Shown piece after piece: positions 15,501 to 64,000 of a stretch of 64,000 nucleotides of DNA; position 1 is the stretch's first letter; every line of letters starts with the position of its first letter. Origin of the DNA: Marsupella aquatica. Its lineage: Eukaryota; Plantae; Marchantiophyta. The DNA is taken from assembly GCA_973895155.1 (NCBI GenBank), contig OZ316897.1:21170260-21234259 (forward strand). The letters run 5' to 3'. Below the pieces are notes generated by a model. The model saw only the letters and a program-made list of their open reading frames with translations, searched no databases and was not told the DNA's origin. The translations under genes and the position numbers were made by a program.

Positions 15501-16302
15501 GGTCGGAAATAGTACTGATGTAGAAGAAGGGCCCTAAAATGCTGCCCACTTCCAACACTCTGCCATTCACGTGCTCGCCCTTGGGGTGCCATAAAGGATG
15601 GTTGACCAGCGCCGTGGCCAGAGGAGGATGCGACACCAGCATCACTAGAGCTCTCAACGGCCCTTGGAATGGACCTAGCGGAGAAAGTTTCGTGACACTT
15701 CGCTGCAAATCTCGAAAGACCGGATTGAAAATGTCACCTAGTTTCTCTGCTTCGAAGAAATTGATGAAGTCGTCAAGAAATCCGGGCGGCAAAGTCGGCC
15801 TACTCGCCCCGACGCCGCTAGTGCCCGGATCGGTCCCCACTGACGGGGAGATATCCGCAAGAATGTGCCCCAACAAATCTGAATGACCGTCATTCGCAGC
15901 CTCACAACCAGGATACAGGCATACATTCCCCACATGCGAGACGCAAAGGTCCCTAACCTGGCCCAACGTGTACTGAACCTCTGCGAGAATCTGCTTGTCT
16001 TTCATGTTTTGCAACTTCCGATGTTCATCTAAAGCTCTCCAGTAGCATCCCACTAAATACACAAATGGCATCTCTCCCCCTCCCAAAAGCCTCGCCATCA
16101 ACACCCTCTCGAGCACATCCCTGTTCAGCGCCAAATTCTTCCCCTCACTCAGCAGCTCAGCGGCTAGCAATTCCAGGTACATGTACTCATGAGCTATTGT
16201 TCCTGCTCCTCCATGCTGCTGCTGCACGAGCGTCACCAGCAAAACCTTCCTCAAAATGAAATCCTCGACCTTCTCTATCCTGCTTAGCATTTCCGCCATC
16301 AC
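12562..16302 (-). CDS. UFD2: Chimeric UFD2/UBE4 core (intronless retrocopy lacking the U-box) fused to coiled-coil + RING-HC (family copy 2)
   Basis: Uninterrupted exon 16302-13078 has UFD2 motifs (EDFILRKVLLVTL, SFICECFFLTARVLNLG, NPYLRAKMVEVL, EFTGSKTQFYDKFNIRYNI, NLLINDS, NPEKYEFNPRELL). It switches at ~13499 to LHVELQALDLK..., homologous to copy 1. Donor GAG|GTAAGT at 13077; RING exon 12762-12562. Confidence 0.9.
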
Positions 16303-17549
16303 TCCACCTCTGTCTCGACAATCTCTCTCTCAATAATCCTCCCCGTAAACCGAATTCAACACCTGTCCGTGCCCACGTTTCGCCTGCCTTCCGTCCTCAT
16401 TCCGTCCTCCTTCCACCAATGCACGATGGATTACCTACAGTAGGTGCCATTCCCGTTGGCGCACTAAATATAGAACTCCTGAAATTCTGGCCTCTAATGA
16501 CAAAATATTTGGGGTCCTTGTGAATCCTTCGAATTTTTTCCCCTGTGTGAAAGATGGCCTTCCTTACATGAAACGGCAATTGAGATTGAATGTTAATGGT
16601 ATACGGTTCACAAATTGGCGATCGCTGTAACTAAGAAACAAAAAGCACAAAAAATATAAACTTCGCATGCGTTTGGCAAGGGTTGAGTTTTTTTCCTGGG
16701 AGAAAATGAGGCTTTAGATGCATTTGGTATAAGATAATTGGCTGAGAATTCGAGAAAATGACCAAGTCTTTCTTAGATCAAAAGTCAACTGATTCCATAC
16801 GAACGTGAGGCTGAATAAGAGAGCTGATGCGATCCCCCACGCCACAAGCTTTGGTCTGCTTGGCTTGCCGGCCCACCCGACCAAGAGGAGGACTCAGGTG
16901 GATTCGAAAAGAAGAGAAACAAAGGCAGCACTCGGTTTCACTCCACTAACGAGGGGCGGGTTTGGCACATGACCCAATTGCCTTTGCATTCAGGATTCTA
17001 TTCGGACAGAGCAAGTACAAATGGGATGGAACTGTTCAAAAAGGATGATTTTTTTTGTTGGTTTTGAGTGCAACCTTTGCTGATAAGTAAAATGCATTCA
17101 AAAAGGATTTTGATTCAGTCCAATAGAAGATCAGAGTTTTTGAAGCTGTGAAACGGAGTCGCATCACCATAGACAGGACTCATCATAACATGCACTTAGA
17201 TAGGGGACTTTGTCAGGACTTACAACAACTTCTACAAATTGTAGCTGAATCAGCCTTTCTCGTGAATTGAAATCAATCTAAATATCTCAGTTGTAAATGT
17301 CGTAGCATCCATCATCCAAAGACTGAAGCAGGTAACACCCTTGTTCCACAAATATTTTGCATTCAATGTAGAGCCCATAAGTTCAAATCCCAACCTTAGT
17401 AAGGAATGCTTCTTAATAAAGTCCACTGCTCGCCAATAAGGGCGAGGGACGGAGCTTACTTCATCGCTAGGGATCCTGCCCGTCTGGATTGCTGTCCAAG
17501 GAAGATCCCTTAACATGTCTGCCTTTTTCTTCTCTTGGGTAGCTTCTTC

Positions 17550-17722
17550 TTCATTTGCACCCTCTTGCACATGAGTTTCCACTCTTTCAGCCTCTTGCAG
17601 GTGAGTTTACAGCTCTCCCTCTGGAGTTTCCACTTGTCTCCCTCCAAATTCCACTTCTGCCTCTCAGCATTGTGTAACTTCGGTAGCTCTTGCCTTGTTT
17701 CTTTATACGAATCTGTGGGAGC
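17550..17722 (-). pseudogene. Orphan 5' coiled-coil fragment of the RING-family gene interrupted by the UFD2 insertion
   Basis: PTDSYKETRQELPKLHNAERQKW...KRLKEWKLMCKRVQ closely matches copy 1 (8355-8190). Confidence 0.75.
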
Positions 17723-17834
17723 TACAATTGCCTGTTGTTTACGTGGAGAGCTGTCTTTTGGTTCTCTGCAAGGAGTAAAGCATTTCCGGGCCTCCGTCCC
17801 ACGTTTCGTAAAGAAACATAACAATAACAACTAA

Positions 17835-18030
17835 TGGTTACAGATGGTCCATCCAAGTTATGCAAGTTGTTGTGATCGATCCATCCACGCTGCTCTTTAT
17901 ACTACTGTGAAATTTACAAGGTAACGCAACGACTGTGGCAGAACAGTGGCGCTTTCTGAGACAAATCAATAACGGGATCAATGATACCCATTTTCAACAA
18001 CTTCAAGTCTTCAGTGTTGGACCGACCGAT
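17835..18030 (-). repeat. Inverted duplicate of 10250-10455 (upstream region of RING copy 1)
   Basis: 'cattttcaacaacttcaagtcttcagtgttggaccgaccgat' (17989-18030) is the reverse complement of 10251-10292 with 2 mismatches. Similarity extends to the 'ccatccaagttat' segment. Confidence 0.8.
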
Positions 18031-20064
18031 AAACTGTGAACCATTGAACCTGCATCGTTGTTTTCAGCCGAGCTAACCTGCCCTGTGACTCAGATCATAT
18101 TCCCTAATTACTACAGGACGGACGACAGAAGCCCGACTATCCCCACCGTTCTCATCTTTTCGTGCTCGTGTTCCCTACTTCCCTTCCTAGAGAAAATCAC
18201 CAGTGTGACCGAGAAACGATTACACTTGCAGGTCGATGATGAGACACTGCGAAACTTACGGCACTTCTTGGGCTGAAGAAGGCGCTGGCTTCAATTCAGT
18301 CGAGGATTCTAAGCTCACACGATTTTGACCCTTGTCACTTTTGATCCTTTTATTCCTCAGTTCTTCTTCTTTGGCGTCTAGTACGCGTGTGCTCATGGTG
18401 TAATGGTTCCGAATCTTGAAGCTCTTAGATCCGATTTCTTTTTAAGAAATTGCGGCAGGTATGAGCACCCGTACGAGCATTTATATGCCCTTTGCATGTC
18501 GACGCGCGTGTCTCGACGCGCATGGGAGGGAATGTCCAGAGCTGCAGCAAGGCGCGGTGTGTGGCTGCGTCGCCGGGGTGGTTTCATGTTGGCAGAAAAG
18601 GCAAAACATTGGCGCTCACTAAAATGACGTGGTCCTGAAACAAATTTTGGAGGCGCCCCAGAACTCATTTAGGGATTTGGAGACCGGATGCGAGCCAGAA
18701 AACACTGCTGGTCGCATGTGAGCTGCCCTGAAGAATGCGGCCCTCAACCTGACTCATGCTTGAGTGACGGAGAGTTACTTGCCTGAACCCTCTCCTGAGC
18801 CACGGCTGGCAGCAAAAAATTTGGAGTTCCCAAGGGCCCAAGGGCAAGGGCTGGAAATTTTCCTGCCCTCGAGGTCCCGACCTCAAAATTTATAATCAAA
18901 CAAGAGCACGGACGTGACACATGTTGTTCGACTCTGCCTTCTTTGTATTTGCCAGTCACCCTGCAATTCATGGAACCAAGTGCTTGAAGCAAGAATCGCA
19001 GCACTCAAGCTTTTCCCCTGTCCAAAGAACTGAGTTCAATTTACAAGTTCAATTTGCCACAATTCAGGCACTCATCGCAAACGATTCGAAGCTGAAGTTG
19101 TGGGAAATGACGATACTCATGCTCTGTACACACTGCAATTCATAAAAACACTTGAAGCTCAGTACTGAAGCTGCGCCCATCTCCAGACAGCACTAACTAC
19201 GCAAGAACAAGAGCACACATTGTGGCGATCTTGATTATGCGAGCTCAGCGCACTCCAGGCTCAATTCCGCTGTATACCAGAAGCAGAACGACGGCACCGA
19301 GCCCTGGCAGTACCTTCTATCCAGCATTTTCTTCTCGCAACATTTCTCTCAATCAACGCGGCTTTGTGTTGATGTGCTTTGTGCCTATTTCCTTCGGAAG
19401 ATTGTTGCGTTGATTGTGCATTTCTCTCACCACACAAATGCATTTCATTCACTTCCATTCCATGCAGCTGAATTCCTTTCAAGTGTGGCAGCCCTTTGCA
19501 ATACGTCAAGCTTTTTAGGCAGTGACAACTTGAGGGGCTCAGGAAGTCACCACCGAGCAGCTCTGGAGCTCTACCTGGCTTTCCAGGTTTCCCAGTTCTC
19601 TCAGTAGGATGATTGTTGGTCTTCTAGGCTACCTTGTGGTTTCTTTGGTTTGTTCCCTTTTGGTTGTGGGGGGCCTCTTGGCGGGATGGGCCTTTTGGTC
19701 TTCCTTTAGGTCTTCCATTTGGTCTTCCTTTTGGTCTTCTCAGGGGTTTTTCCCTCCCTTCAGGAGAAAGTGGCCTTTTGGTCTTCTTAGGGGTTTCTTT
19801 CCCTCTCTTCAGGAGAAAGAGAACCCAAATTTAGAAATGAGGGAAAAACAAAGTACAACGAAAGCATTGTTTTGACTTTGGGACCCTGAGTCTCCCTGTT
19901 AGGCGTTTTTGTTCTTTTGCACTAATATGAGCAGCAGTGCAAGTGAGATGGAAGTTACTGGTACAAGAGCACATGTGCATTGGTGCAAGAACGAAGGTTT
20001 ATGGCACTTTGCAGGTACACAAAATGCAGGGCCAATAATGTCCCTGTAAAGTGTGCCCTTTATA

Positions 20065-20182
20065 AGCCCTTGACTATACGATCATGATTCATACCATGCC
20101 CACTTAGTCGACATAATCCAGATGTGTTTCACCTCTTCTCCAAGGCTACGTCCACACGAACATGAAAAACTTTATTTCAAGA

Positions 20183-20231
<49 letters not shown>

Positions 20232-20390
20232 ATTACAATAAGCAAACACTAATGTACCAGTGGCTTACACTAGCCCTGGTATATACAAGGTCACTTACAA
20301 CTAACCTAATCTCAGCTAAGTCCTAACTGTGGTTAGACTAATTGTTGTAATCTATGAGTCACAAGACTAAGAGCAATATTTAGCCTGAGC
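20065..20390 (-). mobile_element. Degenerate Copia-type LTR fragment, same family as 58113-58459
   Basis: Its reverse complement aligns with 58120-58450 (atattgctc.tagtcttgtgactcat ... gtggacgtagcct ... gaggtgaa ... gtcgacta). Contains a (CT)n tract at 20186-20228. Confidence 0.7.
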
Positions 20391-20460
20391 GTCAGGTTGG
20401 CTGCCCCTTAACTTCTTGGCTTGAACCCCAACTTGGGCCCCAAATCTGAATACCAAAAAC

Positions 20461-20497
20461 CCTAACCTAACCTAACCTAACCTAACCTAACCTAACC
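20461..20497. repeat. (CCTAA)n / TTAGG telomere-like pentamer, ~7 copies
   Basis: cctaacctaacctaacctaacctaacctaacctaacc read directly. Confidence 0.9.
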
Positions 20498-22688
20498 CTC
20501 AATTTGTACCAAAGTCCCAATGGCCTCCTTAGGTTACGCCCTAACTTCCTTAACCCTTATGTAACCCTCCAATAACTGCAACAACAATTGAGGCCTCATG
20601 AAATTGCTTAGCCCCTAAATATAAAGGCCCAACACTACAGACATGCAAAAATTTTAGCTACTTTCTTGGGAAAAATTAAAATGACTATATATTCTCTGTG
20701 AATCCGTGTGTACCAATTGCCACATGTCCTGTGCATGGGCAAAAAACCTTAACTTTCTTAGAGAACTTCATGGAATATGACCCATTTGATGAGGGCCTAT
20801 TTTTCTTTAAAGCAGACCCAAAAATTTAATGGACCCTATTGTTCTTCCACAAAACTTTGGAAGTCTTCCTAGGTAGGATCATTTAAATGACCCTATACTT
20901 TGTCGCATATGATGTGACACTTCCGTGGAAGTGACCGCCCCTCTGGAGGTTTAAAGACCCTATATGCTTTGAATTCTTTAAAAAATATTCTTATAGAGCA
21001 AAACAAATGACCCTAATTATGTTTTGTTGTACTTGATGTGTCATTTTTGGGGAAATGAAACCCTTGAGATCTTTGGTCTATACCAGGGTTTCGAAGGACT
21101 AGTATATCATTTGGTAATAATCCTGTACACCCACTTTGGTGGAAAACTGGAAGTGAGTGTCTATGGTACTCACTATTGTCACTCAACAATGCTATAACCA
21201 AAGTACAAGACGCCATAAACACAAGTCAGATAAGTTACAAATGTAACTCCAAATGTAACACCCTACATAATAGTAGTCCCATCATAGACCAAAACTATAA
21301 TTTGCTGCCTCTGTTGTTAATGCAAACTGTAGGCACCACGGAAGGTGGTCCGCGGTAAAAATTTGTTGCTGGGCAGATGGTCAAAAGTTAGGGCAAGAGG
21401 TATAGAAGGAGTTGGCCGCAGTGTGAAAGTTGCAATGAGTATGTCCAATCATTTTAGTGCACTGCACTCCTACCAAAACTTGCAAACCCAAATCTCTTTC
21501 CCTCCTCCCTACCCTTCAGCTCCCTTCCCGTACCCCAACAATTCACAAGTTTCCCTTTTTCCCTCCCTGACTCCCCACATCACTTTCTATTTTCTTTTAT
21601 CTTCTCCTTTGTTTAATTGGTTTGATGAGGCTCATTGGAATTGTTCTGGAAATCCATTTTTCTTCAAAATTTGTATAGTGAGTACTAAGTCCTAAGTTAG
21701 TCAAATCTCATCCCAAACAGAGTTGAGATGACAAAGTTATGGCTACAAGCTCTCTTGATGCAACTTAGGACGATACCCAAGTAGGACAGAAATAACATTA
21801 TGAAAACTAAAATTAAAAAAAACACCTCACAAACATATATTACAGTCATATACATGCACATTGTCACCTGCCATCTGTCAATTAAAAATATCTAACAGTT
21901 GGCACCTTGCCTTGTGACCATGGTGCACTGTAGTCCACCGGCCTCCTTGTTAGCCTTGATCTCATGCATCAATCAATCAGATCCAATGGCTATAGGACCT
22001 CTCAGAATTTTTCAAGGCTTTCTAAGGTCTTTTCAGAGTGTCCCTTATGGGAAATCCCATGGTTTAGAAAAATTCAAAGGATAAATCTGATGGCATGGAA
22101 TTATTCCCTTCTCTTTTTATTTTTTCTAAACAAAAACTACCTGCTCTCTTGACCTTAGATCCATAGTTTTTGACATTAAATATTAGTTCCACAGAAGGAA
22201 TTAATTGTGCAAGGGAACATCTTGCCTTTGCTTTTTCTACTTACTGCAACATTAATCCATATACTTAAAGAAGTTATTGTCACCTTTAGGAATAATATCT
22301 GTATTTCCTCATATCATTAAAATATATTAATAATTATTTTAATTTGCCAGAGTACAAGACACGGAAGCAAGTTCGAGCATGCAATATGCTATATCTAATT
22401 TCTTATATTTTCGTGATAATTCAACAAAATAAAAATGAACACTAAGAGTGGGCGAGTGACTTTCAAGCAAATGAGCGTCATTTCCAATGTCATTTAGACA
22501 CTTTGCAAGTGCCTAGTCAGGCCCATAAACCACCACTTGTCTGCACCTTACTTGTCAATGAGGGCCACCTTCCAATGGCTAGGCCAGGTGCCCCAGAATA
22601 TATGCATGTTATCATGAGGTGCTCCGCAATGCAGGATTTTTTCAAGTCCTTTTTTGCCCGTGAAAGAGTGTATTAACATGCAGTAAGC

Positions 22689-22805
22689 AAGTTGCCTACA
22701 AAAGAATCTAGCAGTAAAGACCAAGAGAAGGAGAACCAAAAACTTTAAGTTGCCTACAAAAGAATCTAGCAGTAAAGACCAAGAGAAGGAGAACCAAAAA
22801 CTTTT
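22689..22805. repeat. ~59-bp direct tandem duplication
   Basis: aagttgcctacaaaagaatctagcagtaaagaccaagagaaggagaaccaaaaacttt occurs twice. Confidence 0.9.
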
Positions 22806-24405
22806 TTGTTTTATAATCTTATGTATAAAGCCAGAAAGGGAGCTATAGTTGAGTTCTAGGCTTCTAGAGTGAAGTCTATAGACAGTGACTCTAGAGCCCC
22901 ACCATAAAATATGTACATAGAAAAGAGGATGCTATATATATATATATATATATAACGTGAAGGGAAGCTAGAGTTGAAGTTTAGAGAGTGAAACCTCTAG
23001 ACCGCAACTCTAGGGCCCCACCATATATGTGCATAGAAAGGAGAATGTCATAATATGTATGATTGTTAAAATGATGGGGCCAGGCATGGTGGTTTTTTTT
23101 TATCAGACATTTCATTCACCTTCAAAGAATGGGAATAGTAAATATATTTGTTGACACTTTATTGTCCTCTCCACTATTATAGGAATCATGTTCTTTGACG
23201 GGTGTCGGGGCTAATATAAAGTAAAAAGAGAAGAGAAGGAAACAACACAACACTTGTGCATGGACAAAGAATTAAACAATTTGAAGAGATGACACACACG
23301 ACTACTTCAATGCTTACATTCCTCAATGTTGCTAGCATATTGCTCCGACCAGAAAAATTCCTGGGGTCCTCACTTTTTGTCTTCTGACTCATCATGCACA
23401 AATAAGTTTAAGGTGCTTTAATTGAATTTCATGAAAGACATACATTTTTGTGGGCAAACATTAGAGGTTTTCATCCAGACAGTTTTGAGCAATCAAGAAA
23501 AGACAGGCATTTTACAAGTAGTTTTGGAAGATTCCAAAATTATTCCAAAAATATGGGGTTAGAAATGAGGTTAAAAACCAACACAAGGATTAACAAGGTG
23601 CTTGGATGAACTCATAGTACCTGGATTGAGACAAACCAAGCATCACTACCTTATACAGTCTGTGTAACAGTACTCATGAGTTTATGATTCATTTCATATA
23701 TCACCCTATTCATTAAAACTGGAATTTCTCTAGTCCAGAAGTTGACCTTCAAATTTCTTATTTTACCCCCAAAAGTTCTATAACTTGTTCCCCAAAAGCA
23801 TACATTTTAGTTGCCAAATATACACTTTTTGAGGTCTAAAATTACAATTCTAATGCCCAAATTATTAATTAAATAATTCAGTTATCAATTATTAATACTT
23901 ATTAATTAAAAGACATTAAAGTGTTCTTATTATATACAATATAAACAATGAAAAAATAGAATAAGACAATATAATAAATTGAAATGACCCTGATAACCAA
24001 GTTACACAAAGTAACACGGAAGGTAAACCGGTGATGTATTATAAAAGTAAAAAACCTATTTTTACAGGGCCGAGACCACGTCTGCCCCAATGCAGGCTCT
24101 AGATGGTTTTGACCGGTTGTTGAATGTATATCAATTACTATGTAAAAATCTATGTCAAGATTATCTCGACCCAAATGTAGGGTCCACATAATTTTGACCC
24201 CTTGTTGAATCTATATCTCTAGCTATTCCCTTTGTATAGGGTCTAGACCCAAATAACCTTTTTCTGAGAACATATCTACAAGTAAATGAGGATCAACAGC
24301 ATCTAGACTCAAATGGATACTACGCATAGCTTCACTCTTTTTTCGAGTAAGAATATGTATATGTACAACTCACATCGTAACTGTTCAGTGTAGGGTCGAG
24401 ATAAT

Positions 24406-25680
24406 CTAGACCCAAATCTCATGCTCCTCCACCCCGCAGAATTCATTTGAGCAAGTAAACCTAGACCCTGACGGGTCATATTTCATATCGCGATTACAGA
24501 AATTGAGAGGCTTTCTATTCCAGAACTTTGTTGTGAGGTCCCTACACCTCAAGACTTCCAAAACAAATCCCCGATGATTGTCTCTGTAGGGTCTTGTGTA
24601 CTGATATCCAATTAATGTCTTTGCAAGGTCGTTGATCGCCTCCTCCGTCAATTCCTCCATTGGTGGTAATTTTTGCACTTCATTTTTGATATCCCAAGGA
24701 ATTTCGTCCGCTGTGACATCCAAGACTGTATGGAAAACGGAATGAACCCATACCATACTACCCCACCGCTCCGTCAACAATGCATAAATGGAAGCCTGTT
24801 GATCTCTGTCCGATAAAACATTTATCATAGACCACTTTGGATGATTGATAAAAAGATAGTGCTGAAGATTGAAGGCATGATACAATTTCCTGAGCAGAGG
24901 CCACAGTATTTCTGGAAAGAATGTATCATCCGTGGAGTGATGCGAAAATGAGGAAGGAAACAACCCACAATTCTTTGGATTTGCAAACGCCTTCATTGGA
25001 GTGTCATCAAGAAGGAGTGTATTAGTTTCGTCATATAATCCACCATAACGTTTCCAAACAACCCTCAAATCCTTCAAAAGAATATTTGCCTTCCCATCGG
25101 TAATGTCAGGCCTCTGGATTCCAGTATCGAATGTATCTTCTTGAGTGAGAATAAACTTGAATTGCTCTCTCTCTTCTTGATTGAAGATCAAATGAATCAT
25201 TTCATCCGTCTTGGGTTTCCTTGCACAAGTCCAAATGGCAACATCAAATAATGAAAAAGCTGCGATTAAGAACTCGTGAAGATGGGGTCGCTCAACATAC
25301 ATAAAGTTAAACCCTCCACGTCTCCCCCAGTGGACACCATTGACACTTGTCGCACTACGGCGCGGTCCGGAACTTGGCGTTTTGACAGAATCCCAGCACA
25401 TTTTGTTGAGGTCAAGAATCAATAGCTTCCGTCTGATCGGACCGTGAAGTGGAGGCAAGGGTCCTGCAAAGTACGAACACCAACGTTAGAATTGTGGGAG
25501 ATAAAACAAAGGAATGCTCGAGACGATCTCGAGCATCACAAGTGAATGAACAACAGTCAACATCATACCTGTTATTTGTGGAAGGTCAGTAGTTGAAGAA
25601 ATCTCAGGACATCTTCGGAGATTATTGTCGACGCACTCCACAATTTGTAAGGGCCCGCCTATTTCTGTGAAGGTAGACAT
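24406..25680 (-). CDS. FCP1/NIF-family HAD phosphatase-like protein (transposon cargo)
   Basis: Exon 25680-25569 (ATG; donor G|GTATG) and exon 25463-24406 (acceptor CTTTGCAG|) join in frame. Motifs KLLILDLNK, ERPHLHEFL, FDVAIWT, LLKDLRVVW, NTLLLDDTPMKAFANP. Confidence 0.8.
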
Positions 25681-25734
25681 AATAATTTAGACGGCTGAAT
25701 TTCCGGACAGTTCAAACTAACTTGGGTTTCAACC

Positions 25735-28700
25735 TCACGTGCTGAAAGACCCAAATTCATCTAGAAGGTTATCTCCTAGTTGGTTTTGGATGTCCAAATT
25801 TATCCCTCCGGGAAGGGTCTCAACAAGAGCTGGCTCAGACCAAACTGACACTAATTTGAACTTATCCATCCTATACTTTCTAGATCGAATAATCTTCTCA
25901 GACTGCTCTATAGAGATGTGTTGACCTTTTGACGGTCCATCAGTCCAAACATAATGAGTAGCACTTGCTTTGAGTGATTTGTAACCAGTTCTACCGATTT
26001 CAGTCCCCGGTTTCCTAACAAAAGGGAGAATTACGGGGCTTCCAGTAGAAGAATCTGTGAAAACAAGCTTATTCTCTGAAGCGCAAAACATTTGGTCCAA
26101 GGGAGAGGACGATGCACCTGCCTCGTCCTGAGGGGGAGTATGGAAGCCACTAGCTTTCTTAGTAGAGAAAATCTCATCCAGTTGAGGAGGGCTTGGAATT
26201 GGTTGGCTAACTGCATCCTGCAAGGTGGATTCCCAGCCAACATCCAAGGTTGAAGACTGTTGTTCACGTTGTGCATCCCCAAGGTCACCCGATGAAGGAA
26301 CACTTGGAACATCGAGATCATCTCGAGCATCATTTCCAAATTCAGGGAGTATTTCACCCTCTTCTTCCATGTAGCTTGTAATTTTCGGGCCCTCCATTTT
26401 GCGATGCTCTAAATTCTCCGCAAATACTTCCTCATAAACACTGGCTTCCACTGGAGCTATGTCTGTGGCCGCCTCTTCTATAAGAACGAGGGGACCAGCA
26501 GTAATTTCCTCAGATGGTAACGGCTCCTTGGGTGGCACATATAAAACTTGCTTGTTGTCATGAAGGAGCTGAGCAAAGGCTTCAGTGAATTCCATCTCTT
26601 GAGCTGTGTCCGAATACACAAAACAATCCCGACCAAGAATGACACAAGCTTTCAATGTCTGTCCTCCAGAGAAGAAATCCAACACTGTATGACCTGGGCA
26701 CGAGAAATAATCAACAAGACGCTTTGTCATTCGCAAAGGCTTTGCTCTCGGATTTACAAAGCCACCACGCCGACCGACCATCTCATAAGATGGGGCCATC
26801 TTCTCCAAAACTTTGACATCAATAGTGGATTCATCGAGCTTCTCTTTCCCATTTGATTGGTCTTTGTTGTTCCCAGTAGGGGCCTTCAAAGGCAAGACTG
26901 TGAAGTCTTTGTCCCACTTCTCACTGTAGTTCCAGAACGCATAAAAGTCATCAAAGAAAATTTGGGACCAGTCTGGTTCCTCTTCACAACAAATTCCCCC
27001 AAAGATGATTGAGTATCGAGCTCCAATGAGAAAATCTCCCTCCTCCTTGGGCACCTGATCACGGTAGTAGCTCCCGTACTCCAGCTTCGTGTGCACTTTC
27101 TTCTCACGACGAATCTTTTCAAAGGCACTCTGAATCTGGCCTATCAATGGGCCTTGACGGACAAAAAAGATTACTAAGACCTCCGTCGAGTTCGCCATCT
27201 GCAAGCAATACTCCAGCAAGACAAAAATTTCGGCATCTGTCCACTACCATTGTCGAATACGACCAAAATCGACAATGGAGAGTGGACACGTCCTTTGCAC
27301 CGAGTCAACAACCTCAGGCTTCATTGTCCTCATCAAATTATCGCTAAAAAATGTGCGATAAGGAGTATCCTCCATTGAAGGCAATCCGCCAAATACCTTG
27401 CAATATATCTGCTCAAGCCTCACAATGAGACTTTGCGGAAATGGGTCTTTTGGCCTATTTCTTTTTAGGAGGTTGGAAATCCAAACCTCTCCAGCAAGTT
27501 GTCTAAGTTTGGGCAACTCACCACGATCCATAAATGCAGGCAACAATTGAGTTAGCTCAAACCAAGTGAGTGAATTGGTAAACCGATCCGGATACTTCAA
27601 AACGAAGTACTCCATAATTTTTACCCTCAGCTTGGTCATGACTTTGAAAGTATGAGCCATATCACTCATTGATTGAATATCAGATTTGTTGGCTTGGTCT
27701 TTCTTCAATAAAACCTTCTGTTGTTGAACGGCAGTAAAAACTTTCAGAATGTCGTCATTACTCAGGTCTCCTTCAAAGCATCTAAACAATGCCGGCGTAA
27801 TCATTTTTGTTGTCCGGGCTTTCCCGTTTATTTTTGAACCTAACTCCCCTAGACCATCCGGAAGAAGTCCCTTGACCCAATCGATGCACATTTGTCTCCA
27901 AGTTCGGAAGAGGTTCTCATCCGAAAACAACAACCAAAAAATATTCCTCAGATCAGATTTTCCAGTCGTTATTTTGGCAAGGGCCATAAAATCCTGGTCC
28001 AAACAGTACAAAACAAATCTGAGGCTCGAGACGATCTCGAGGTAGAATTAAGAAACTATGGTAAAATTTATGGGAGAATACATGAAGATAAATCAAATAC
28101 AGAAACTTGACCTCGAGGCTCGAGACAATCTCGAGCTCGAAGTGGATTTGAGTTCAAATATACCTGGAACTTTTGATGATCCGTTAGTCTATTGGACCCA
28201 ATCACGGGTCTCTCCGGACGGCCACACTCGTCAAACTGTCGACGCGCATGGACCATAGTATCAAGAAAACAGGACTCATACTCCATTGTCTTATTAACAG
28301 CATTTGCCCTTTGTGAGTGTTGAGCAAGTATTGTCCTTGGAGTTCTGTCCGAAAGAATTCGTGACTTCCAATATTGCAGACTCTTCGCGACCTCCTTCAA
28401 CTTTGCATCGCTCTTAGCCCAACCTATGATCCAAACAGCTGCTTTTGCCGAGTGTTGTCCACTGATTGCAAGGAACTGCACCTTCTTATTCTTAACACCC
28501 CACTCAAACTCCTTTCGATCCTCAGCAGTATTCTCATAATGGAGCAACTGCAAACTCTCTCTTGAATACGGAATTAAATTCGCCATAGCTGGTACCATTC
28601 CAGGGTTTCTAACCATGGATTTTGCAACCTCCATGGCATGGTCTTTATTGAACATCCTATAAACCAAAACTGCAGATGGCGAATCTATACTGGTGACAGG

Positions 28701-30678
28701 AATGTCAAAAGTTTCATTCATGCCAAATGTGTAATACTCCTCAATCTCCTTAAGAACTTCGGCTCCTTCCTTAACGCTCTTTTCTCCCGGAGCATCTCCT
28801 GGAGTGCCATCATCATCGGTATGTGCATTCACACCCGAGGAAGATGCCGGAATGAGATCTACCTTGGGCGATGCGGACTTTTTTGGTGGATGAGCCTTCT
28901 TCGATTTGATTTCGGGTTTGTCAACCCTCTTCCTCTTTTGAGACACCTTCGCTTCCTTTTTGTCCGAACCGGAGGTCTTGTCTCCTGCAGCTATGGATTT
29001 CACTTTACCTGTTTGTCTCCGATGAGACAACACCCACTTTTTACAAGCATCCTGGTCAAATTCTCCGGCTCCAAACACAAAATCAGGGGATATAGATTCA
29101 AACTCCCCCAATTTGGATTCCAACATTAGTCTCAAAACCTTCCACGTGAAAGGAGTCGTGAATGCATCATCGCGATCAAGCCCATACTTCCGACAATAAA
29201 GGAATCCAAAAATTATGTCCGCTCCAGATATAGGAGTATCTTCTAGCAAATTACTTGTAGTAAAACCCTCGGGGAAGAAACCCATTGATATCACGCTCAG
29301 TTGTTTCCTGGCTGCACGTTCAATGTTAAGATCGCAAGAGTAGTTTTTGGCGTGAAGTCTAATTAGAGCCCACTTCCCTGTTTCGTGGTTCTCCACCGTC
29401 AAAACCATGTCCTTACCGTTACTCGTCACAATAGAAACAACAGGCCCTAGAAGGCTGCACACCAGAGGATCGACTGATGGAGACTTCGTCTTCACACAAA
29501 TAATAGTTCCTTCCATGTCTTCAGTTTCAGCAAGCTCAATGGCCCAACAGAATCCAAATAAACTCTATCCAGGGCAGGAAATCTCAATTGCATGTTCATC
29601 TTCGACTACCAAATTAGGCGATCCCAATTTCGCACTTGGTACAGCAAAAATGTAGCAATTGTCAGAAACATGTACTACAAAACCAAGATACAAATAGGTG
29701 GCTCGAGATGATCTCGATCTTCAGTTTACTATTAGACATGTTCCAATGCCATTTCATCCGTGGAATTTAAAAAGAGATTTCAAACCCAAGAATCCCAGGA
29801 AACACAATAGGCTCGAGATGATCTCGAGCCACCATCTGTTTAAAAGAAAAAGATAAGGGCTCGAGATGATCTCGATCCACATATATATCAGTTGAGGCTT
29901 TATTCCAACTGGTCCAAAAGGCAAGCTTGGATCACATTGAAAAGGATATTAGTAATTGAAGTAGACAACAAGGAGTCCTTCCAACTGGAAGAAATTGGCC
30001 AAGGGAGACGAATGAACATAAGGGAAGACGGTGTGGGATATATTTGGCTCGAGACGATCTCGAGCCTAACATATCAAATGAGTGATCTGAATATCATATT
30101 CAACAATTAACATCATATTCAATCAACGATAAAAAATCCACTTTCTCCATTAACTTCTGATACCCACAAACCCGTTCGGATGTCAATGATCAGAACGAGT
30201 TGGAGGGCACAGAAGTCCCTGGAGGAAGGAAAATTTAGATATTTTGGATATGATGTTCAATTTTGAAGGGTAAGGGTTTCCAACTTGAAGAAATCTCACT
30301 AGGTCACATGCAGGAATTGCATATTGGCTCAAGACGATCTCGAGCCTCATGCCACTTACATCAAATGCAAAATCAATTAATAGATCATAACTTTTGAAAC
30401 AAAATATTGGAGAAAACATCAATAGGCTCGAGATGATCTCGAGCCTCAACGGCATCCAAGGAATCCAAAAACAAGTGGACCAATTGAAGCTCGAGACGAT
30501 CTCGAGTTAAACCTGAACAGAACAAAGATGAAGAATTACGTTTAATGGTGCGATGGATCTGATGTGCTGAGTCTAGATGGGTCTGGAGCTCTTCGCCAAT
30601 GGTTGCAAGGTTGTACTCAGCGAAGTCCTCCTTGGAGAAATCTACAACAGTCGACATGGCTGGTGATGAGAGGAACAT
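25735..30678 (-). pseudogene. Multi-exon transposon cargo gene: ParB/Srx-like domain + beta-class N4C/N6A DNA-methyltransferase-like domain, with nonsense lesions
   Basis: ParB-like segment IPVTSIDSP..YRMFNKDHAMEVAKSM...FLAISGQHSAKA...ANAVN (~28720-28280). Phase-0 intron 28163-27994 joins KFQ|DFM. In-frame TAG at 27246-27244 and another TAG at ~29565. MTase-like PRAKPLRMTKRLVDYFSCPGHTVLDFFSGGQTLKACVILGRDC (~26751-26620). Likely first exon 30678-~30540; the exons between it and ~29640 are unresolved. Confidence 0.65.
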
Positions 30679-31810
30679 ACTACGGGCTGAGAACTTAAAA
30701 AAAATCTCGAGCCTAAAAAGAAAATCTCGACCCTATCAAAGCTCGACCCTAAACACAAAATCTTGACCCTATAAAATCTCGAGGAAAAAACCTAATCTCG
30801 ATCCTCTGCAATCTCGAGGCTAATAGAAGGATCTCGAGGCAAGAGCGCGAAACGATCTAGAGGCAAGGAGGCAAGGGACGCGAGGAGGCGAAGAGGCAAA
30901 GAGGCGAGGAGGCAAATGTGAAAATGGGGAATTCAAAACCCCTGAAGCCACTATAAGCCCCTCGGGGGTCGGCCTTGGCCGTGCCAAGCGTGCCAGGGCT
31001 CGTGCAGGCTCAAGCAGGCTGCCACGCAACCTGCTGGGTGCGTACAGTCATTATTACGGTCACACGTGTTGTCATTATTGTTATCCGTACTTCAGCCCTG
31101 CTGCAAGTTTAGCCGTGACACAAGTTCAACCATTCCGTCTTATTGCCCTTTTTGTCTGTCAGGGTTTTATATATTGCTTCTCCTTGCTCTTCAGCGGGTC
31201 ATTCTTCTCATTTCATTTCACCGCTCGCTCGTTTCTTCCTCTGCCTCTCTGCTCTCTCTCCCTCTCCCTCTCCCTCTCTCTGGCTCTAGATTTGTGCTCT
31301 GATCTCTTTCTGTTGTTCTTTTCAAGGGTTTTGGAGTCTACGTTTGTGTTTAGGATATTTCGAGAAATTGTCATTTTAAGCCCCGAAGGAGGTCTAAAAT
31401 AATTGAGCTCCTATCTTTTAGAAAACCGAACCTTTTCAGCTTATACTAATGTCGGTCAAAATCCATTTGGAAGCCTTTTCCCTCTATTTGATGGCCTTTT
31501 AGAAGCTTTTTCTCAGTGTCTGGAAGTAAACTGGGAGCCTACTTTCTTAATTGCACCAAATCATTCCTCTAGATCATCTAGAGGCATTTATATGTTCTTA
31601 TTTTGGGTGGCTTATTATTCCTAATAGTTTCTTTGTCAAATACAATGTCCTTTTTGGCTCGAGATCATCTCGAGTCATAAGTTTGGTCCTCAAACTTATT
31701 CACTTTCCCCTTCTTTCTAATGGTGCATTTGGTTTTCCTTCTTATAATAAATGTTTTTAGAGTGTCGGAGGTATAGAATCTTAATTCGATATTCAGTGAG
31801 ATTCATATTT

Positions 31811-32030
31811 TACCTCGAGATCGTCTCGAGCTAAATACTTCTGAATTTTTACATATTGGTGTTTTTGGTCCCTTTTCTACCTCGAGATTGTCTCGAGCTA
31901 AATACTTCTGAATTTTTACATATTGGTTGTTTTGGTCCCTCTTCTACCTCGAGATCGTCTCGAGCTAAATACTTCTGAATTTTGACGTATTGGTGTTTTT
32001 GTCCCTCTTCTACCTCGAGATCGTCTCGAG
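31811..32030. repeat. ~67-bp tandem repeat (3.3 units), each unit carrying the 17-bp CTCGAG palindrome
   Basis: Palindromes at 31814, 31881, 31948 and 32014, separated by ctaaatacttctgaattttt. Confidence 0.9.
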
Positions 32031-33454
32031 GTAGAAGAGTTTCTTATTTTCTCTATCACACAATTTTGTGGGATAAACTTCTACACTTGGGTTTTTGTAG
32101 TCACTTTACCTCGAGATCATCTCGAGGTGATCTCGAGGTAACTACATCCAACGGTTTGGGCCACGTTTTCAAAATGGGGAGTTTCTCTCGAGGGGACAAG
32201 GTGTGCCTCGTAATCGACGGAGTGGAAGTTGCTTGCGGGATGGTCCTCAAGGTTGACCCGGGTGACTCAGTGCGTAATGTTGATTTGGGAAGTAATCGTA
32301 TAGGAGTTCTCATTGAGAAGTGCTATGAGGGATCACAGGAAATTCCTTACCCTTTGCCGCCGATCAGGACCCTGTTTGATGCTGTCGACTCTTGCATTAT
32401 TTGGGATGCCTCTTTTGCATATTTGAAGTCACAGTCAACTCCAGCGACAACGAAAATGGATGCCTCCTGTTCTAGAAAGGATACGGTTCCGGGTTTTGTA
32501 CCAGAGAAATCGTCGGTGGAAATTTTTGGAGAGTGACTCGATTGTATCTGGCGATGAAGTCGAGGTCTGGATCGGCAATCAGATTGTGGCTCGTGGATTT
32601 GTGTTCAAGACGAATCCCGATGAGACATGTCACAATGAAAGACTTGGCACTTCTAGGATTAGTGTGAAAATATGTGAAGTTTTTCAAGGAAGGGAGAGGT
32701 TACCCTTTCCTCACAATGGAGCCGATACCGTTCAGGAAGCATTGGATACTTTTGTATTGTGGAATTTAAAGGATGTTACTCGGAGGAGTTCTTCCCGGGA
32801 TATGCTAAACAACCTGTCCAGACAGGATGTTTTTTCAAATTATAATTTCAAGGATTATAGTTTGCGTTCTAATTGGATGACCGAGGAGGTGGAATTGTAT
32901 GCTGAGGATAATCGGACCAAAGTGGGGGTTGGCATCATCACAGTTCCTTTCAAGTCAGGTGCAATTGATGATGATGTTCTTGGACCAGATCATGTTGGGG
33001 TTGCTGTCACACGCGTGATTGACCCTCTATTTTTCCCAAATATCTCCCCAGGAGTGCCTGGTCTTGTTAGGTGGGCCGTCCGTTCACTTTTGCTGATATC
33101 AAGGGGTATTTTTCTTCTGGATCTCATTGAAGAGGTTTCTCCGAAACCAATTATTGATGGTCGAGATCATCTAGAGGTAGATATGAAAGGTGACACTAAG
33201 TTTTTGAAGCGCCCGTATAATTTCATCAAGAGAACGAAGGTCAACCCAGATGAAAAAAGGAAGAAGCACTTGGAGTCTCGGGCGATACTAAAAATCACAG
33301 AGGAGGAAATCGACTCCATCCAAAGAGAAGGTTGTTGTAAGTTGAAGTGTTGCCTCAGCATGCCGAGAGAAGACCTACAGGAGATAAGGAGGGAATACCA
33401 TGGGATGTCAAGCGACAACAAAACCAGTCACATTCTCACTCTTTTTGGCTGTAG

Positions 33455-35137
33455 CACTAGTACATTTTACCTCTTTTTTCCGATTCTCTCCACATCGGAC
33501 GCCTTTGTAAAATAAAATTTGAAAAACCATATATCCGATACTACTAGCATCGCAACATGCCATTTTAATAGTATCGGATATCGACAATCGGACTTCTATC
33601 GGAAAGTCCGATGGTGGGAGAATGGGAAAGTCCGATGGTGGGAGAATGGGAAAGTCCGATGCTAGGAGAATGGGAAAGTCCGATGGTTAGAGAATGGGAA
33701 AGTCCGATGCTAGGAGAATGGGAAAGTCCGATGGTGAGAGAATGGGAAAGTCCGATGCTAGGAGAATGGGAAAGTCCGAAGCAATCAAAATGGGATATGC
33801 ATTTCAGTGGACGCGATATGTTCAGGTCACCTATCTCTTCCTTTAATTGGGTTTCTACTTTCATTTGGAACTATGAGCTAGGTGCCCATCTCCCTTGACA
33901 TGTGAACTATTCAAATTTTCTCAACTAATTGGTCACCCATCCCAATTGCTATTCCTCCAACATGAGCTTAACTTTGTGGTTCTTATTCCTTACATTGTAC
34001 ATGCAAGCTTAGCACTTTTGTTGTTTGACTTAGAGTGTTTGGGGATTTTATACACTTGTGAGTTTACTAAGACCCATAATTTGGATCCATTCTTGATCCA
34101 TTTTTCTCTATCATGAGATTAGATCTTTGCATCAAGTGACCTATTCTAGTTACCCTATTACATTCCCCTAGGAGAAACCAATAGAAATCTGGCAGGGGTC
34201 ATTCATCGATAGTAAAGCCCTCCTTCATTAGATTTGATATGGGATAATTATGGCTTATTAGTTATGGATGATATTTTGGTCCTTCCAAAGCCTCAGCGTC
34301 AATGGCTCCTGATTGTCTCATCTTTTATCAACTATGTTGTTGTTGGACTTGCAACAAAGACTACATGGGACAAGCAACCTCCTTCTAGATGATGAATTTT
34401 GGACTTGGCATGTTGAGCATATATTTCCGTAAGGGAACAATATGTTGGGTCTTGGAATGAGGCAAAAACAACACTCAAGTCCATTTGCCTCAAGTATGAA
34501 GTTATTCATGCATGCAAGAATGATTGCATCTTTTGGGAAGAGTATGTCGGTGCAACCACATACCCCATCTAACACATCAAAACTTTTCATTCTAACACAA
34601 TCAAAAATTTTCTTTTTGTCATAACCAGTCTTTCCCATACTCCCAGCATCGGACTTTCCCATTCTTCTAGCATCGGACTTTCCCATACTCCCAACATCGG
34701 ACTTTCCCATTCTTCCAGCATCGGACTTTCCCATTCTTCTAGCATCGGACTTTCCCATACTCCCAGCATCGGACTTTCCCATTCTCCTAACATCGGACTT
34801 TGCCATGTTAGCACAATCGGATATAATATCCGTTATTATTAACTACGGAAAGTTTCCGATCAATATTGTAACACACATCATTTTCGTTACAAAAAACATC
34901 GGACATATCAATCAAAGTTTCTGTTGAGGGATCCGATGTGTTTTCTAACGGATATGATCCGTTTTTTAACGCATCGGAAAGGTTCCGTTGTCAATTATAT
35001 CGGAAATGAAGATATCCGAAGCCGAGAGTATGGCATATTGCCATTTTTTGATAATCAGAATTTCCGATGCTAAAAGAATCGGACGCCGATTGTTCGCAAA
35101 AATTGAGCATCGGAAATCAGCTTAATATGTACTAGTG
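33455..35137 (+). mobile_element. Non-autonomous CACTA (En/Spm) element nested in the transposase
   Basis: TIRs CACTAGTACAT / ATGTACTAGTG, 3-bp TSD TAG. Many TCCGAT/ATCGGA subterminal motifs. TnpD remnant WNEAKTTLKSICLKYEVIHACKNDCIF at ~34454-34535. Confidence 0.95.
33601..33780 (+). repeat. 24-bp minisatellite (ggaaagtccgatgStRggagaatg, ~7.5 units) in the CACTA left arm; inverted mirror array at ~34630-34803
   Basis: Read directly; it produces the spurious GEWESPM repeat ORFs. Confidence 0.95.
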
Positions 35138-38100
35138 TAGGGAGAAGGAAGTGGAGACAAAAGGATATTTTGTTGTAAGAAGTAGACTTGTTTGCAAGGG
35201 TGCATTTATTAAAATGCATGGATTCAGCACTGCCAAGTATTATGATTACAAAAATCAATATGAAGCAGGTTGCACGGTTGGATTCCACGGAAACAAGGGT
35301 TCACACAAGACACGGGGAAGCACCTTGCATGCTCGTGCTTTGTTGGAGTCCATTCTAACCCAAAACGGAGAACCCATGCCGCATCTTCCCTATGGAGGGT
35401 CTCACGGGACTGACACGGTTGAGTACAGACTTCCATCTTGTTTCACGAAGAAAGAGATTTTTGAGGAGATATACTCAAAAATGGAATTAGATGGCTACGT
35501 GAAGGTGAGTGAAAACACTATGTATAAACTCTGGAGTGAGTCCTTCATGAATTTTGACTTTCACAAGGGAAGTGCATTTGCAAAGTGTACACTTTGCACT
35601 GAGTTCAAAGATCAGTTGATGCGGGAGAAGAGAAAGAAAGAGCGTTTAGAGATTGAGGAAAGAAGAGCTCGCCATCTTCGTGAGCAAATGTCTAGGATAT
35701 ATGTTTACTATGCTCATAGGGTTCTTGCGAAGAAGGATCCTGAGAACTATCTTTGCATTATACATGACAAGATGGACCAGGCCAAGACATGGATCCCTAG
35801 GTTGGTCCCCACTCCTAAATCATTGTCTGGTAGTGGTCAATCGCTCCCCATTGCGCTCACTGGGATGTTGACCCATGGAAGGGATCCCGGAGTGTATGCT
35901 CACTTCAGTTTTACTGGGCTTTGGCCAGGAGATGCAGACTTCACAGTGACATCATTGGCCAAGTGCCTTAGAGATCTGGAGGATTACAAGGGGGACAAAT
36001 CTGGAGACCTCCTTGAAGGATTATATTGGGCTGCAACGAGGCCAATTTTTCAATCTCTTTTGGACTTTGAAGCATTTCTCGCAGGTTACTTAGAACCCAA
36101 AAAAGTCTCAATTGCTAGATTTCAAGGAGCTGAAGATGACCAAGACGACTTTGGTGTTGATCCCAAGGCTACGTCTACCTCTTTCAAACCATTGCCAAGG
36201 CACCTGACCTTGCAAATGGATAATTCAGGGAAAGATAACAAAAACCAGTACATGATGGCATTTTGCAGTGAGCTTGTTAGTAGAGGGGTTTTTGAAACAG
36301 TGCAGATGTCGTTTCTCATGGTTGGTCACACCCATGAGGATGTCGATGCATTGTTTTCAAAAGTATCCAACCAAGTGAAGTACAAGGAGGTTTCTACCCT
36401 CTTGGGGTTGATGGCTGAGGTTTGGGAGTGTGAAAGCATTCATCCTGTGCCACGGTTGATCCAAGAGGTTGCAGCTTACAAAAAGTTTTTGAAAACTTTC
36501 AAGGTAAAAGATATAGAGGGTCACTCAAAACCAGTGACATTTCTTTTCTCTATGAGAGATAATGTTCCAATATATCAATACAAAGCACATGTGAAACAAC
36601 CTTGGTACCCTCCAACCGGAAGGTCCATTTGGAGAACTGATTCCAGCACCAATGCTCTCATTTTACCAGAAGGTCAACCATTTGCAAAACCCATCTCCGG
36701 GGATGTACGAGGCAAGGTTGAAGAAATCATCCCATTCCTTAATCGTTACATTGAGTTTTTGAAGAAGAGCTGTAAGGATGAGACCTCTACAGCATATCGT
36801 GAGCGGTTTCCTTTGGTGAAATATTGGGAGATGGTGGTGCAAGTATTATCTGGGGAGCTTACAATTGAAGGGGAGGCAGAAATACAGTTAGCATTGACAT
36901 ATGAATTCTGGCCAAAAACCAACCACGGAACTGGTTACAAGGTTAATAGTACAGGAACCTCTGAACCATTGGGGGAGCCTAGTAGTAGTACACAGAATCC
37001 ACAAATGGTGGAGCTTCAGAATGAGTACCTGGAAGAGATGGAGGATCAAGCTGCAACATTTGTTGGTGCTCGACACGAGCGAGAACTTGCACGTTGGATT
37101 CCTCTGCAGGACATTCAAGAGGGTCACTTTGTATTTCTCCGTCCAGAGGATGAATGGGAAAGGAAGAATGGGAAAGAACGTTTCTGGTTGGTGAGAGCTT
37201 TGGGTGTTGTGGACCCAAACCATGAGGTTCCTTCAGGAGACTTGCAATGCAATGAGAATTCTCCTACTAGTACACGGTATGCTCCTATGTTCCAAGTGCA
37301 ATGGTGGAGGCCTAAACATGGTAAGCATGATGCACCGGATCATGTGCGATATTCACGTTGCTTTCAGACCACTAAGACTTGGGAGGTGGATCCTGGGTTT
37401 GACAGTGCCACTGAACGTTGGCAATTTGCTAATTCTGCTATGTATGGATTCAAGTCACGCTCTAGAGAAGAAAATATAATTGATAGAGGTTTGACCATTC
37501 CCAAGAATGTTTTGAAAACACTCAAAACCTACATGGAAGGGATTGTTGAGTAAGTCAAATGTTTTTTAGTAGTCACTCTGTCAGAGTGAGGGAGTCTAGT
37601 ATGTCAATTAGTTTGGAATTAGACATGTCAGAGTGAGGGAGTCTATGTCAATTAGTTTGGAATCAGACATGTCTTTAGTACTTACTGAGTGTTGGTTAGT
37701 ACTAAGTACTAGTATATCTATTTAAGGAACTAATTATTATAATATTTTGGGATACTAGTTTGAATAGGTGGAGGTAATTGGACTTGGATACCTTTATAAT
37801 TGCTTCAATTAATTATTATATCAATACAGACTATATATTACATGAAGTCTTAATATCCATGATAGGATGTGAGTGCCTCTTAGTACTGTCTAGTAAACCT
37901 TAGTTTCAACTCGAGTTGCTTAGAATGTACTAACAAATTACTTGTCTGAATGGATATTTAAACTAAACCCTAAGTAGAAGGTTAATTTAGCTAGCTAAGG
38001 GTAGAGATCATATTGAAGCTTTACTAGTTATATGGGTAGAGATCATATTATTTGAAGCTTTACTAGTTATATGGGTAGAGATCATATTGAAGCTTTACTA

Positions 38101-38689
38101 GACACTTATATTCTATTAGTCAAATTGAATCAATGTAAGTAAATTCTACTTCTTATCCAACATATTTTACATTATTATCACCCAAATGTTTTTCTTTAGA
38201 ATCCAAATTAATATTTCATTTTCTCCTATGTACAATCTTGATCCCCCAAATGTACAACATCTGGTGCCCAAATGTACAACTCCCACTGCCCAAATGTACA
38301 ATTCTTGTGCCCAAATATATATTTTTTGGTGCCTAAATGTCCAAAGATCAAAGAATTTTCCAGTTTTAATGAATAGACTGATATATGTTAATAAATGCCA
38401 AACTTTGGAAATGCAAAGTGGAAGCTTGGATGGACGCAAATGTTTGACATTGCTAGGATGGACTCAAGAACTTTACACTGTCAGAATACTCTCTCAGCCT
38501 TCTAGTGTCATGATACGTGATAATCAAGAGAGTCAAACTCGTTCAGTTGAATGGGAACAGAGGCCACTGCATGGCAGACTACTAGAGGAATCCACACTTT
38601 CCAAACATTCTATTAGTGGTCAAATGCAGGGTTCCATGTCATTTTTTGAACAAAAGTGTAAAAACACTCTGTAAGTAAACCAACATGTA

Positions 38690-63978: not shown

Positions 63979-64000
63979 CTGCAGTGCCAATTCATACATA

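Follow-up and report, generated by a model that had tools for sequence, protein, structure and literature searches.

A predicted inactive beta-class methyltransferase fold in an accessory protein of a very high-copy liverwort element

Does a bacterial-type DNA methyltransferase domain carried by a liverwort repeat still act as an enzyme, or has it been kept for another purpose? This question is raised by a 64,000-nucleotide (nt) stretch of the Marsupella aquatica genome (GenBank assembly GCA_973895155.1, contig OZ316897.1, positions 21,170,260 to 21,234,259 of the forward strand; hereafter the window, with positions counted from its first letter). An initial annotation of this stretch had pointed to a beta-class (N6A/N4C) DNA methyltransferase-like domain with a degenerate catalytic motif. 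Our analysis indicated that the minus strand at 26560-27372 encodes a complete beta-class fold, as judged from a structural model. We consider it probable that this fold belongs to an accessory protein of approximately 1,200 residues from a very high-copy liverwort element, that it is inactive, as predicted from its motifs, and that it serves as a DNA- or chromatin-binding module.

The peptide PRAKPLRMTKRLVDYFSCPGHTVLDFFSGGQTLKACVILGR, located at approximately 26630-26750 on the minus strand, and the peptide TFFSDNL...LSIVDFGR, located at 27259-27357 on the same strand, lie in the same reading frame with an in-frame TAG between them. The PF01555 (N6_N4_Mtase) profile matched the 502-residue open reading frame (ORF) with E=2.6e-6 and 28.0 bits and a 218-residue piece of it with 30.0 bits, the gathering cut-off being 26.7 bits. 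The match was limited to profile positions 159-207 of 221, corresponding to the motif X and motif I part. When we scanned 19 relatives of the family with the same profile, 14 produced a match, five of them at or above the cut-off. Searching PDB sequences with phmmer identified M.RsrI (E=0.0057) over the same 50 residues as the PF01555 match, and a profile made from 25 family sequences (alignment A1) identified M.RsrI with E=3.3e-9. The likeness to beta-class methyltransferases thus exceeds chance. An hhalign comparison of the family with P0042, a canonical bacterial-type match, covered 113 columns of the C-terminal half only, with a probability of 89.6. The N-terminal half, which contains the motif-IV position, was aligned by neither the PF01555 scans nor this hhalign comparison, so the equivalence of motif IV is taken from the ranges of structural alignments.

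We built an AlphaFold model from the window's own 26560-27900, with X at the stop position, and obtained a mean predicted local distance difference test score (pLDDT) of 84.4 and a predicted template modelling score of 0.65. Foldseek comparison of this model with the PDB returned 88 matches at E<=1e-3, with CcrM at the top (E=5.8e-8), followed by M.RsrI, M.BceJIV, TTHA0409, M.PvuII, M1.HpyAVI, MboIIA, the rotifer N4CMT and then chains of METTL14. Using VIA-align, model residues 177-447 were superposed on residues 3-254 of CcrM with a Z score of 17.4 (210 residues, root-mean-square deviation 3.4). The Z scores were 16.6 for M.BceJIV, 15.7 for M.RsrI (chain residues 36-299), 15.5 for M.PvuII and 14.6-15.2 for the rotifer N4CMT, with values of approximately 11 for MT-A70 enzymes. 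Judging from the alignments to CcrM and M.RsrI, the order of the fold is that of the beta-class circular permutation (motifs IV-VIII, target-recognition domain, X, I-III). The first two strands of the aligned domain are formed by model residues 181-185 (YRTFF) and 207-211 (LSIVD), in agreement with the initial annotation, which had set YRTFF-SD at the position of 'hhhGD' and LSIVD-FGR at that of 'DLIxTDPPY'. The methyltransferase-like domain it had proposed was therefore borne out by profile searches as well as by AlphaFold and Foldseek analysis of the stop-repaired protein.

The motif-IV position reads LSIVDFGR (27259-27282, minus strand), where strand beta4 ends in an Asp and FGR stands in place of PPY. 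The family in hand comprised 96 retrieved relatives, 41 of them gene models of Riccia sorocarpa, and none of the 96 proteins contained [DNST]PP[YFWHL] anywhere in its sequence; P0042, by comparison, has three DPPF motifs. Among the 96, the motif-IV position took the form hhDF[STAGL]R in 13 relatives and LD[LV]TH in 22. To our knowledge, every characterised amino-methyltransferase of the beta-class fold uses a (D/N/S)PP(Y/F/W) loop. As all 96 relatives have other residues in place of the (D/S)PPY loop, we predict that the methylase-like domain is catalytically inactive as an amino-methylase, which upholds the degenerate motif reported earlier. The altered motif sites are nevertheless conserved, which points to selection on a function other than amino-methylation: in all seven long relatives compared (alignment A3), D211, R214, V382, N383, K387 and D408-G413 (DFFSGG) were invariant.

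HMMER alignments to M.RsrI reached the motif X and motif I regions, motif I forming the loop for S-adenosylmethionine (SAM). These alignments placed VNPRAKP (26737-26757, minus strand) as the counterpart of the canonical HPTQKP in the motif X region, and VLDFFSGGQTLK (26650-26685, minus strand) as the motif I region, one residue shorter than the canonical VLDPFxGSGTT. Aligning DFFSGGQ with DFFAGSGVT of M.RsrI required a gap of one residue. Across the family, motif I reads DFFSGGQ(V/T)L with two glycines retained, and DFFSGG was present in at least 56 of the 96 relatives. The acid of motif II, which stands at the end of strand beta2 and holds the SAM ribose in beta-class enzymes, corresponds in the same alignment to the Asp of YSD in the window; this position was D or E in 16 out of 24 family members from short contigs, compared with 1 out of 32 Riccia members.

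We searched 1.84 billion representative proteins with the 502-residue frame using phmmer and obtained 52 matches at E<=1e-3, 30 at E<=1e-10 and three at E<=1e-30. The closest relative, P0002, has 901 residues and is 38% identical, and P0042 was the only canonical protein among the 52, with three PF01555 domains. The family members whose origin could be traced came from Riccia sorocarpa, and the remaining members came from short contigs. With the family profile, 43 proteins were retrieved at E<=1e-5; 41 were Riccia sorocarpa models spread over many large contigs. In the Atlas, 12 clusters of look-alikes (at least 50 members each) ranked ahead of the bacterial PF01555 clusters. Although identity to the window sequence is just 19-42%, the relatives have the same motifs and domain order. 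Scanning metagenome DNA with alignment A3 yielded 30 loci that matched at 31-49% over at most approximately 96 residues near motif I (best E=1e-7); judged by sequence, these look like ordinary methylases and not like copies of the family. Literature searches for DUF7869, for eukaryotic transposons together with N6_N4_Mtase (by title and abstract) and for liverwort transposon methyltransferases retrieved no description of the family, and the term 'DUF7869' was unmatched.

The region carrying the domain is clearly a diverged repeat of very high abundance, and it occurs in three organisms of the public sequencing runs. The numbers of contig pieces matching 24300-29700 were 2,969 in run X1, 1,018 in X2, 939 in X4 and 97 in X5, and most were 90-99% alike. 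Summed word depth in X1, which does not equal copy number, ranged from 1.7e4 to 1.4e5 across 24300-29700, compared with 71-242 in low-copy bins at 16500-19819 and 21148-22475. The depth climbed between 22476 and 23804 and stayed high up to 36400, the end of the stretch compared. Some contigs carried internal deletions in the repeat, for example with 25120 joined to 26316, 26524 or 27112. This places the domain in a very abundant mobile element of a liverwort, in line with the transposon and plant setting that the initial annotation had proposed; the evidence is the contig depth together with the liverwort likeness of an Ufd2/E4 ORF elsewhere in the window.

The copy in the window itself appears to be decaying and non-functional. 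Its in-frame TAG (27244-27246, minus strand) is private to this copy, since most other copies have G at 27246 and read CAG: the depth with G was 6628.7 of 6676.5 in X1, 556 of 795.4 in X2, 3841.8 of 3841.8 in X4 and 90 of 90 in X5. Among the 40 differences listed out of 413, 20 were majority differences within the ORF; 14 of these changed a residue and six were silent, and they were distributed 7/6/7 over the three codon positions. Repeat depth together with the private stop ruled out a host or domesticated gene for the window copy. A retrotransposon context of the DIRS or long terminal repeat (LTR) type with a DAM domain was also ruled out, as no reverse transcriptase or recombinase appeared among the window's 102 ORFs of at least 90 residues.

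The accessory gene occupies 25735-29516 on the minus strand and has approximately 1,200 codons, as delimited by three colinear ORFs and by alignment to P0056 (1009 residues) across the break between ORFs. The three ORFs lie at 28071-29564 (498 residues), 27247-28047 (267 residues) and 25738-27243 (502 residues), the latter two sharing one frame with only the TAG between them; the start ATG was placed from translation and is thus provisional. The protein would comprise, in order, an N-terminal part with the sequence SGQHS, a helical region, the methylase-like domain, an acidic disordered linker and a small C-terminal domain ending in EFGSF. Residues 1-175 of the AlphaFold model, N-terminal to the methylase-like domain, formed the separate helical region. 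Between the first two ORFs lies an interval of 170 nt with GT...AG ends (27994-28163, minus strand), which is probably an intron or a small insertion. Its excision would restore the frame, because 170 modulo 3 is 2, equal to the frame difference between the flanking ORFs, and the alignment to P0056 runs up to residue 257 on one side and resumes from residue 261 on the other. Contigs of X1 and X4 lack 110 nt within this interval, in joins whose shorter side covers only 21 letters and which therefore count for little.

The 3' part of the gene (within 25738-26550, minus strand) encodes a long, acidic, poorly conserved linker, also present in P0002, P0003, P0008 and P0056. This part ends in a conserved C-terminal domain (GY.W..GP.KGK ... 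LQ..LG ... DEYGSF), which the same four relatives share. The C-terminal domain had no match to any family, and the Riccia models examined seem to be without it.

A second gene of the same strand follows. The ORF at 24406-25485 (minus strand), 250 nt downstream of the methylase-like frame, matched the FCP1/NIF phosphatase profile PF03031 with E=1.3e-16 and 61.2 bits (cut-off 21.8) over profile positions 1-155 of 160. Its full length could be aligned to the NIF portion of Riccia models, and NIF and methylase-like parts were joined in one gene model in 7 out of 43 relatives scanned, these seven being Riccia models. Phosphatases of the FCP1/SCP type in the haloacid dehalogenase superfamily use the catalytic motif DxDx(T/V). 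The corresponding box reads LILDLNKM in the window and D[VI]EGL in all eight Riccia sequences covering the site; with DLNKM or D[VI]EGL in place of DxDxT, the NIF domain is thus degenerate too. By-eye inspection for an in-frame splice from the methylase-like ORF to the NIF ORF found no donor and acceptor of matching phase. If NIF instead has its own start (ATG at approximately 25680, donor at approximately 25571, acceptor at approximately 25489), the phases would agree and the product would be colinear with the Riccia proteins.

On the plus strand, divergent to the accessory gene, lies a transposase-like ORF (32427-37553) that is split by a nested insertion. The portion at 35136-37553 matched PF25273 (DUF7869) with E=3.6e-44 and 151 bits. 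In contigs of X1 and X2, 33449 is followed directly by 35136, and the missing 1686 nt are a multiple of three, so that in other copies the DUF7869 ORF runs in frame from 32427-33449. The 1,686-nt insertion itself (33450-35135) is bounded by inverted arrays of a 24-bp tandem repeat at 33598-33795 and 34575-34821, which are up to 90% complementary. Neighbours of the DUF7869 ORF in the Atlas were DUF7869 clusters of Streptophyta and Mollusca, and DDE_Tnp_ISAZ013 occurred in 11% of one cluster. We take the DUF7869 protein to be the putative transposase of the element.

A 17-bp palindrome, CTCGAGAYNRTCTCGAG, recurs in the gap between the two divergent genes and in both of them. We counted 18 copies with at most one mismatch, all within 25517-32137, compared with an expectation of 0.01; a count of 18 was reached in 0 of 100 shuffles. 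Fourteen cluster at 29702-32137, a stretch that opens at the accessory gene's start and reaches into the first ORFs of the plus strand; the 170-nt GT-AG interval holds two more, and another lies in the possible intron of NIF. GATC and two CTCGAG sites of the XhoI type are present in most copies. The candidate ends of the element are a left terminal inverted repeat of 30 nt (23695-23724) that is 93% complementary to a candidate right terminal inverted repeat (38358-38387), the latter lying beyond the depth coverage, which stopped at 36400. The left one falls in the interval over which depth climbs (22476 to 23804).

Taking these observations together, the best-supported interpretation is that the accessory protein is an uncharacterised pseudo-methyltransferase of a liverwort DNA transposon, in which a prokaryote-derived methylase-like domain borne by the transposon has been conserved as a pseudo-enzyme. 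The element would be a DNA transposon of approximately 14.7 kb with a divergent DUF7869 protein as its transposase, and its methylase-like domain would have descended from a bacterial or phage methyltransferase captured by the transposon. The accessory protein and the equally degenerate FCP1-like domain may assist the element in a non-catalytic way, such as by attaching to its DNA or to chromatin, with the palindromes clustered around the 5' ends of both genes as candidate binding sites. The long acidic linker would suit a chromatin-facing protein. The initial annotation had offered two roles for the domain. The first, a transposon vehicle that delivers amino-methylases into plants, was not supported, given that 0 of 96 relatives had the motif and that closeness to canonical enzymes was undetectable beyond motifs X-I-II. 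The second was a decoy, whose catalytically dead half fits the conserved loss of motif IV; we infer a binding or decoy role for the domain.

Several observations weigh against this interpretation. Inactivity is predicted from motifs, and the family still has the first glycine pair of motif I and VNPxxKP, to which the window's clade adds the Asp of motif II; SAM binding therefore remains compatible with the sequence. The stretch expected to recognise the target is poorly conserved and rich in Glu and Lys, with pLDDT below 50 at model residues 340-354, which speaks against sequence-specific DNA recognition by the domain. As for the palindromes, they might just as well serve as promoter elements or transposase sites, or form a small nested repeat. 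A ParB/DndB-like reading of the N-terminal part found no support either. A DGQHR/GxxR box is a mark of DndB/ParB-like domains, which are often fused to bacterial methylases, and SGQHS in the N-terminal frame was invariant in all five sequences compared. SGQHS resembles this box, but no Pfam or NCBIfam profile matched at E<=5, and the AlphaFold model from five sequences (pLDDT 43.6) was too poor for a structural search. Finally, the link to DUF7869 comes from this one window, through adjacency, continuous high depth and one candidate pair of terminal inverted repeats, and DUF7869 was found in 0 of the 43 relatives scanned.

This last point bears on the alternative that survived best, namely that the accessory cluster and the DUF7869 ORF are two separate repeats lying next to each other, the methylase-like protein coming from another element or from a multi-copy host family. 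Besides the absence of DUF7869 from the relatives scanned, it would account for the annotation of the Riccia copies as ordinary genes and for the drop in depth to 3.6e3-8e3 at 29780-31771 between flanks of 6e4-2e5. The divergent genes, however, share a palindrome array that spans this gap and enters both of them, the 30-nt inverted pair brackets exactly these two genes, and the window's 102 ORFs of at least 90 residues contained no reverse transcriptase, RNase H, integrase, recombinase or other transposase family. We therefore regard two adjacent repeats as unlikely.

A second alternative holds that enzymatic activity persists. The domain would then be a SAM-dependent methyltransferase that uses an unorthodox active-site loop (DFxR or DLTH) and acts on DNA in a different manner, or whose substrate is a small molecule, a protein or RNA. 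In its favour, the motifs found in place of the canonical ones are conserved and not random; VNPxxKP, the DFFSGG loop and the Asp that closes beta4 are kept, as is the motif II Asp in one clade; and the entire fold is modelled as intact at high confidence. Against these features stand the loss of the (D/N/S)PP(Y/F/W) loop in 96 out of 96 relatives, the SAM loop that is one residue short, and the loss of the ribose-binding acid in 31 out of 32 Riccia members, and we judge an active enzyme to be quite unlikely.

It is also very unlikely, in our assessment, that the domain is a functionless relic, that is, a captured bacterial methylase that has decayed and whose copies resemble each other through recent amplification of one dead sequence. 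The stop and the residue changes at 14 of the 20 listed differences in the window copy, together with the fragmentary state of many relatives, are what a relic would produce. However, the low identity of the relatives to the window, with motifs and domain order unchanged, is difficult to reconcile with recent amplification; moreover, the family occurs in two distant liverwort lineages with the same NIF partner, and the predicted fold is confident. Least probable of all, and a long shot, is a scenario in which the transposon brought a bacterial beta-class methyltransferase to liverworts, the host tamed an active copy into the sperm N4-methylcytosine writers DN4MT1, and the dead version together with the dead phosphatase became an anti-silencing decoy that sits on the element's own palindromes and shields it from host DNA methylation.

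We compared the pseudo-methyltransferase with known systems. With CcrM, M.RsrI, M.BceJIV and M.PvuII (all PF01555), it shares the fold, the circularly permuted motif order and, in recognisable form, motif X (xPxxKP), the motif I region and beta2. Unlike these bacterial beta-class enzymes, the liverwort family lacks the (D/S)PPY loop, has the shorter SAM loop and an acidic, poorly conserved target-recognition stretch, and is embedded in a eukaryotic protein of approximately 1,200 residues that belongs to a high-copy repeat. A conserved fold with a degenerate catalytic loop is likewise found in pseudo-methyltransferases of the METTL14 type, and METTL14 chains appeared in the Foldseek search at E of approximately 1e-4. 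METTL14 is a non-catalytic, substrate-binding partner. It belongs, however, to another subfamily (MT-A70), with Z scores of approximately 11 compared with 15-17 for beta-class enzymes, and we did not find a paralogue of the liverwort family that could be the active partner.

Among eukaryotic N4-methylcytosine writers of bacterial origin, the bdelloid N4CMT (PDB 8s9m, 8s9n and 8s9o) has the beta-class fold in common with the liverwort domain (Z 14.6-15.2). In Marchantia, another liverwort, MpDN4MT1a/b are sperm-specific host genes with a canonical TSPPY motif (bioRxiv 10.1101/2021.02.12.428880). Both N4CMT and MpDN4MT1 are single or tandem host genes, whereas the transposon family is a repeat without an SPPY-type motif. 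MpDN4MT1 was not among the 52 phmmer or 43 profile matches, in libraries whose inclusion of this protein was unchecked. The DAM domains of DIRS and LTR retrotransposons are also prokaryote-derived DNA adenine-methylase-like domains on eukaryotic transposable elements. They are of the Dam type, retain an Asn-Pro-Pro catalytic triplet and lie within retrotransposon polyproteins, and they were reported to be inactive in E. coli (bioRxiv 10.64898/2026.05.21.726589). Set against that account, the liverwort domain is of the PF01555 beta-class fold, no longer carries the PP motif and resides on an element without a reverse transcriptase.

Several further features of the window lie outside the element. 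An intronless ORF at 12916-16329 (minus strand, 1,138 residues) matched Ufd2P_core with E=1.9e-183 and plant E4 proteins over approximately 82% of its length; it was 80% identical to its counterpart in Calypogeia fissa, 70% in Marchantia paleacea and 68% in Riccia sorocarpa, and at most 63% in mosses, ferns and seed plants. The family scan reported no U-box match for this Ufd2/E4 ORF. A repeat that also occurs at 7426-8049 matches its 3' end (approximately 13013-13510) at 84-90% identity, and a more distant version lies at 47509-48207; related intervals grouped with the ORF span 7353-8633 and 47273-48907. The ORF is possibly a retrocopy, or else a gene that the repeat has cut short. Direct repeats at 59588-60221 and 63259-63999, the second reaching the window end, are approximately 640 nt long, 95-100% identical and 3.7-3.8 kb apart, and resemble the LTR pair of a small LTR-type element. 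At 19820-21147, we observed a short high-copy segment that is unrelated to the element, with X1 depth up to 7e4 and low-copy DNA on both sides. An ORF at 45097-45390 (minus strand) gave a sub-threshold match to zf-RING_2 (E=2.9e-5, 24.7 bits compared with 27.3) and lies inside another repeated family (D1/D5/D6).

For annotation, the label 'DNA methylase N-4/N-6 domain-containing protein', given automatically to some of the Riccia models in UniRef, does not imply activity in producing N4-methylcytosine (4mC) or N6-methyladenine. Transposons that carry chromatin or DNA-modification modules reveal how mobile DNA negotiates host silencing. The element described here ranks among the commonest repeats in a liverwort genome, and it offers a candidate non-catalytic accessory factor that is apparently under selection. 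It would also be a second and independent case in which the beta-class fold turns up in liverworts, the plant lineage with known 4mC writers.

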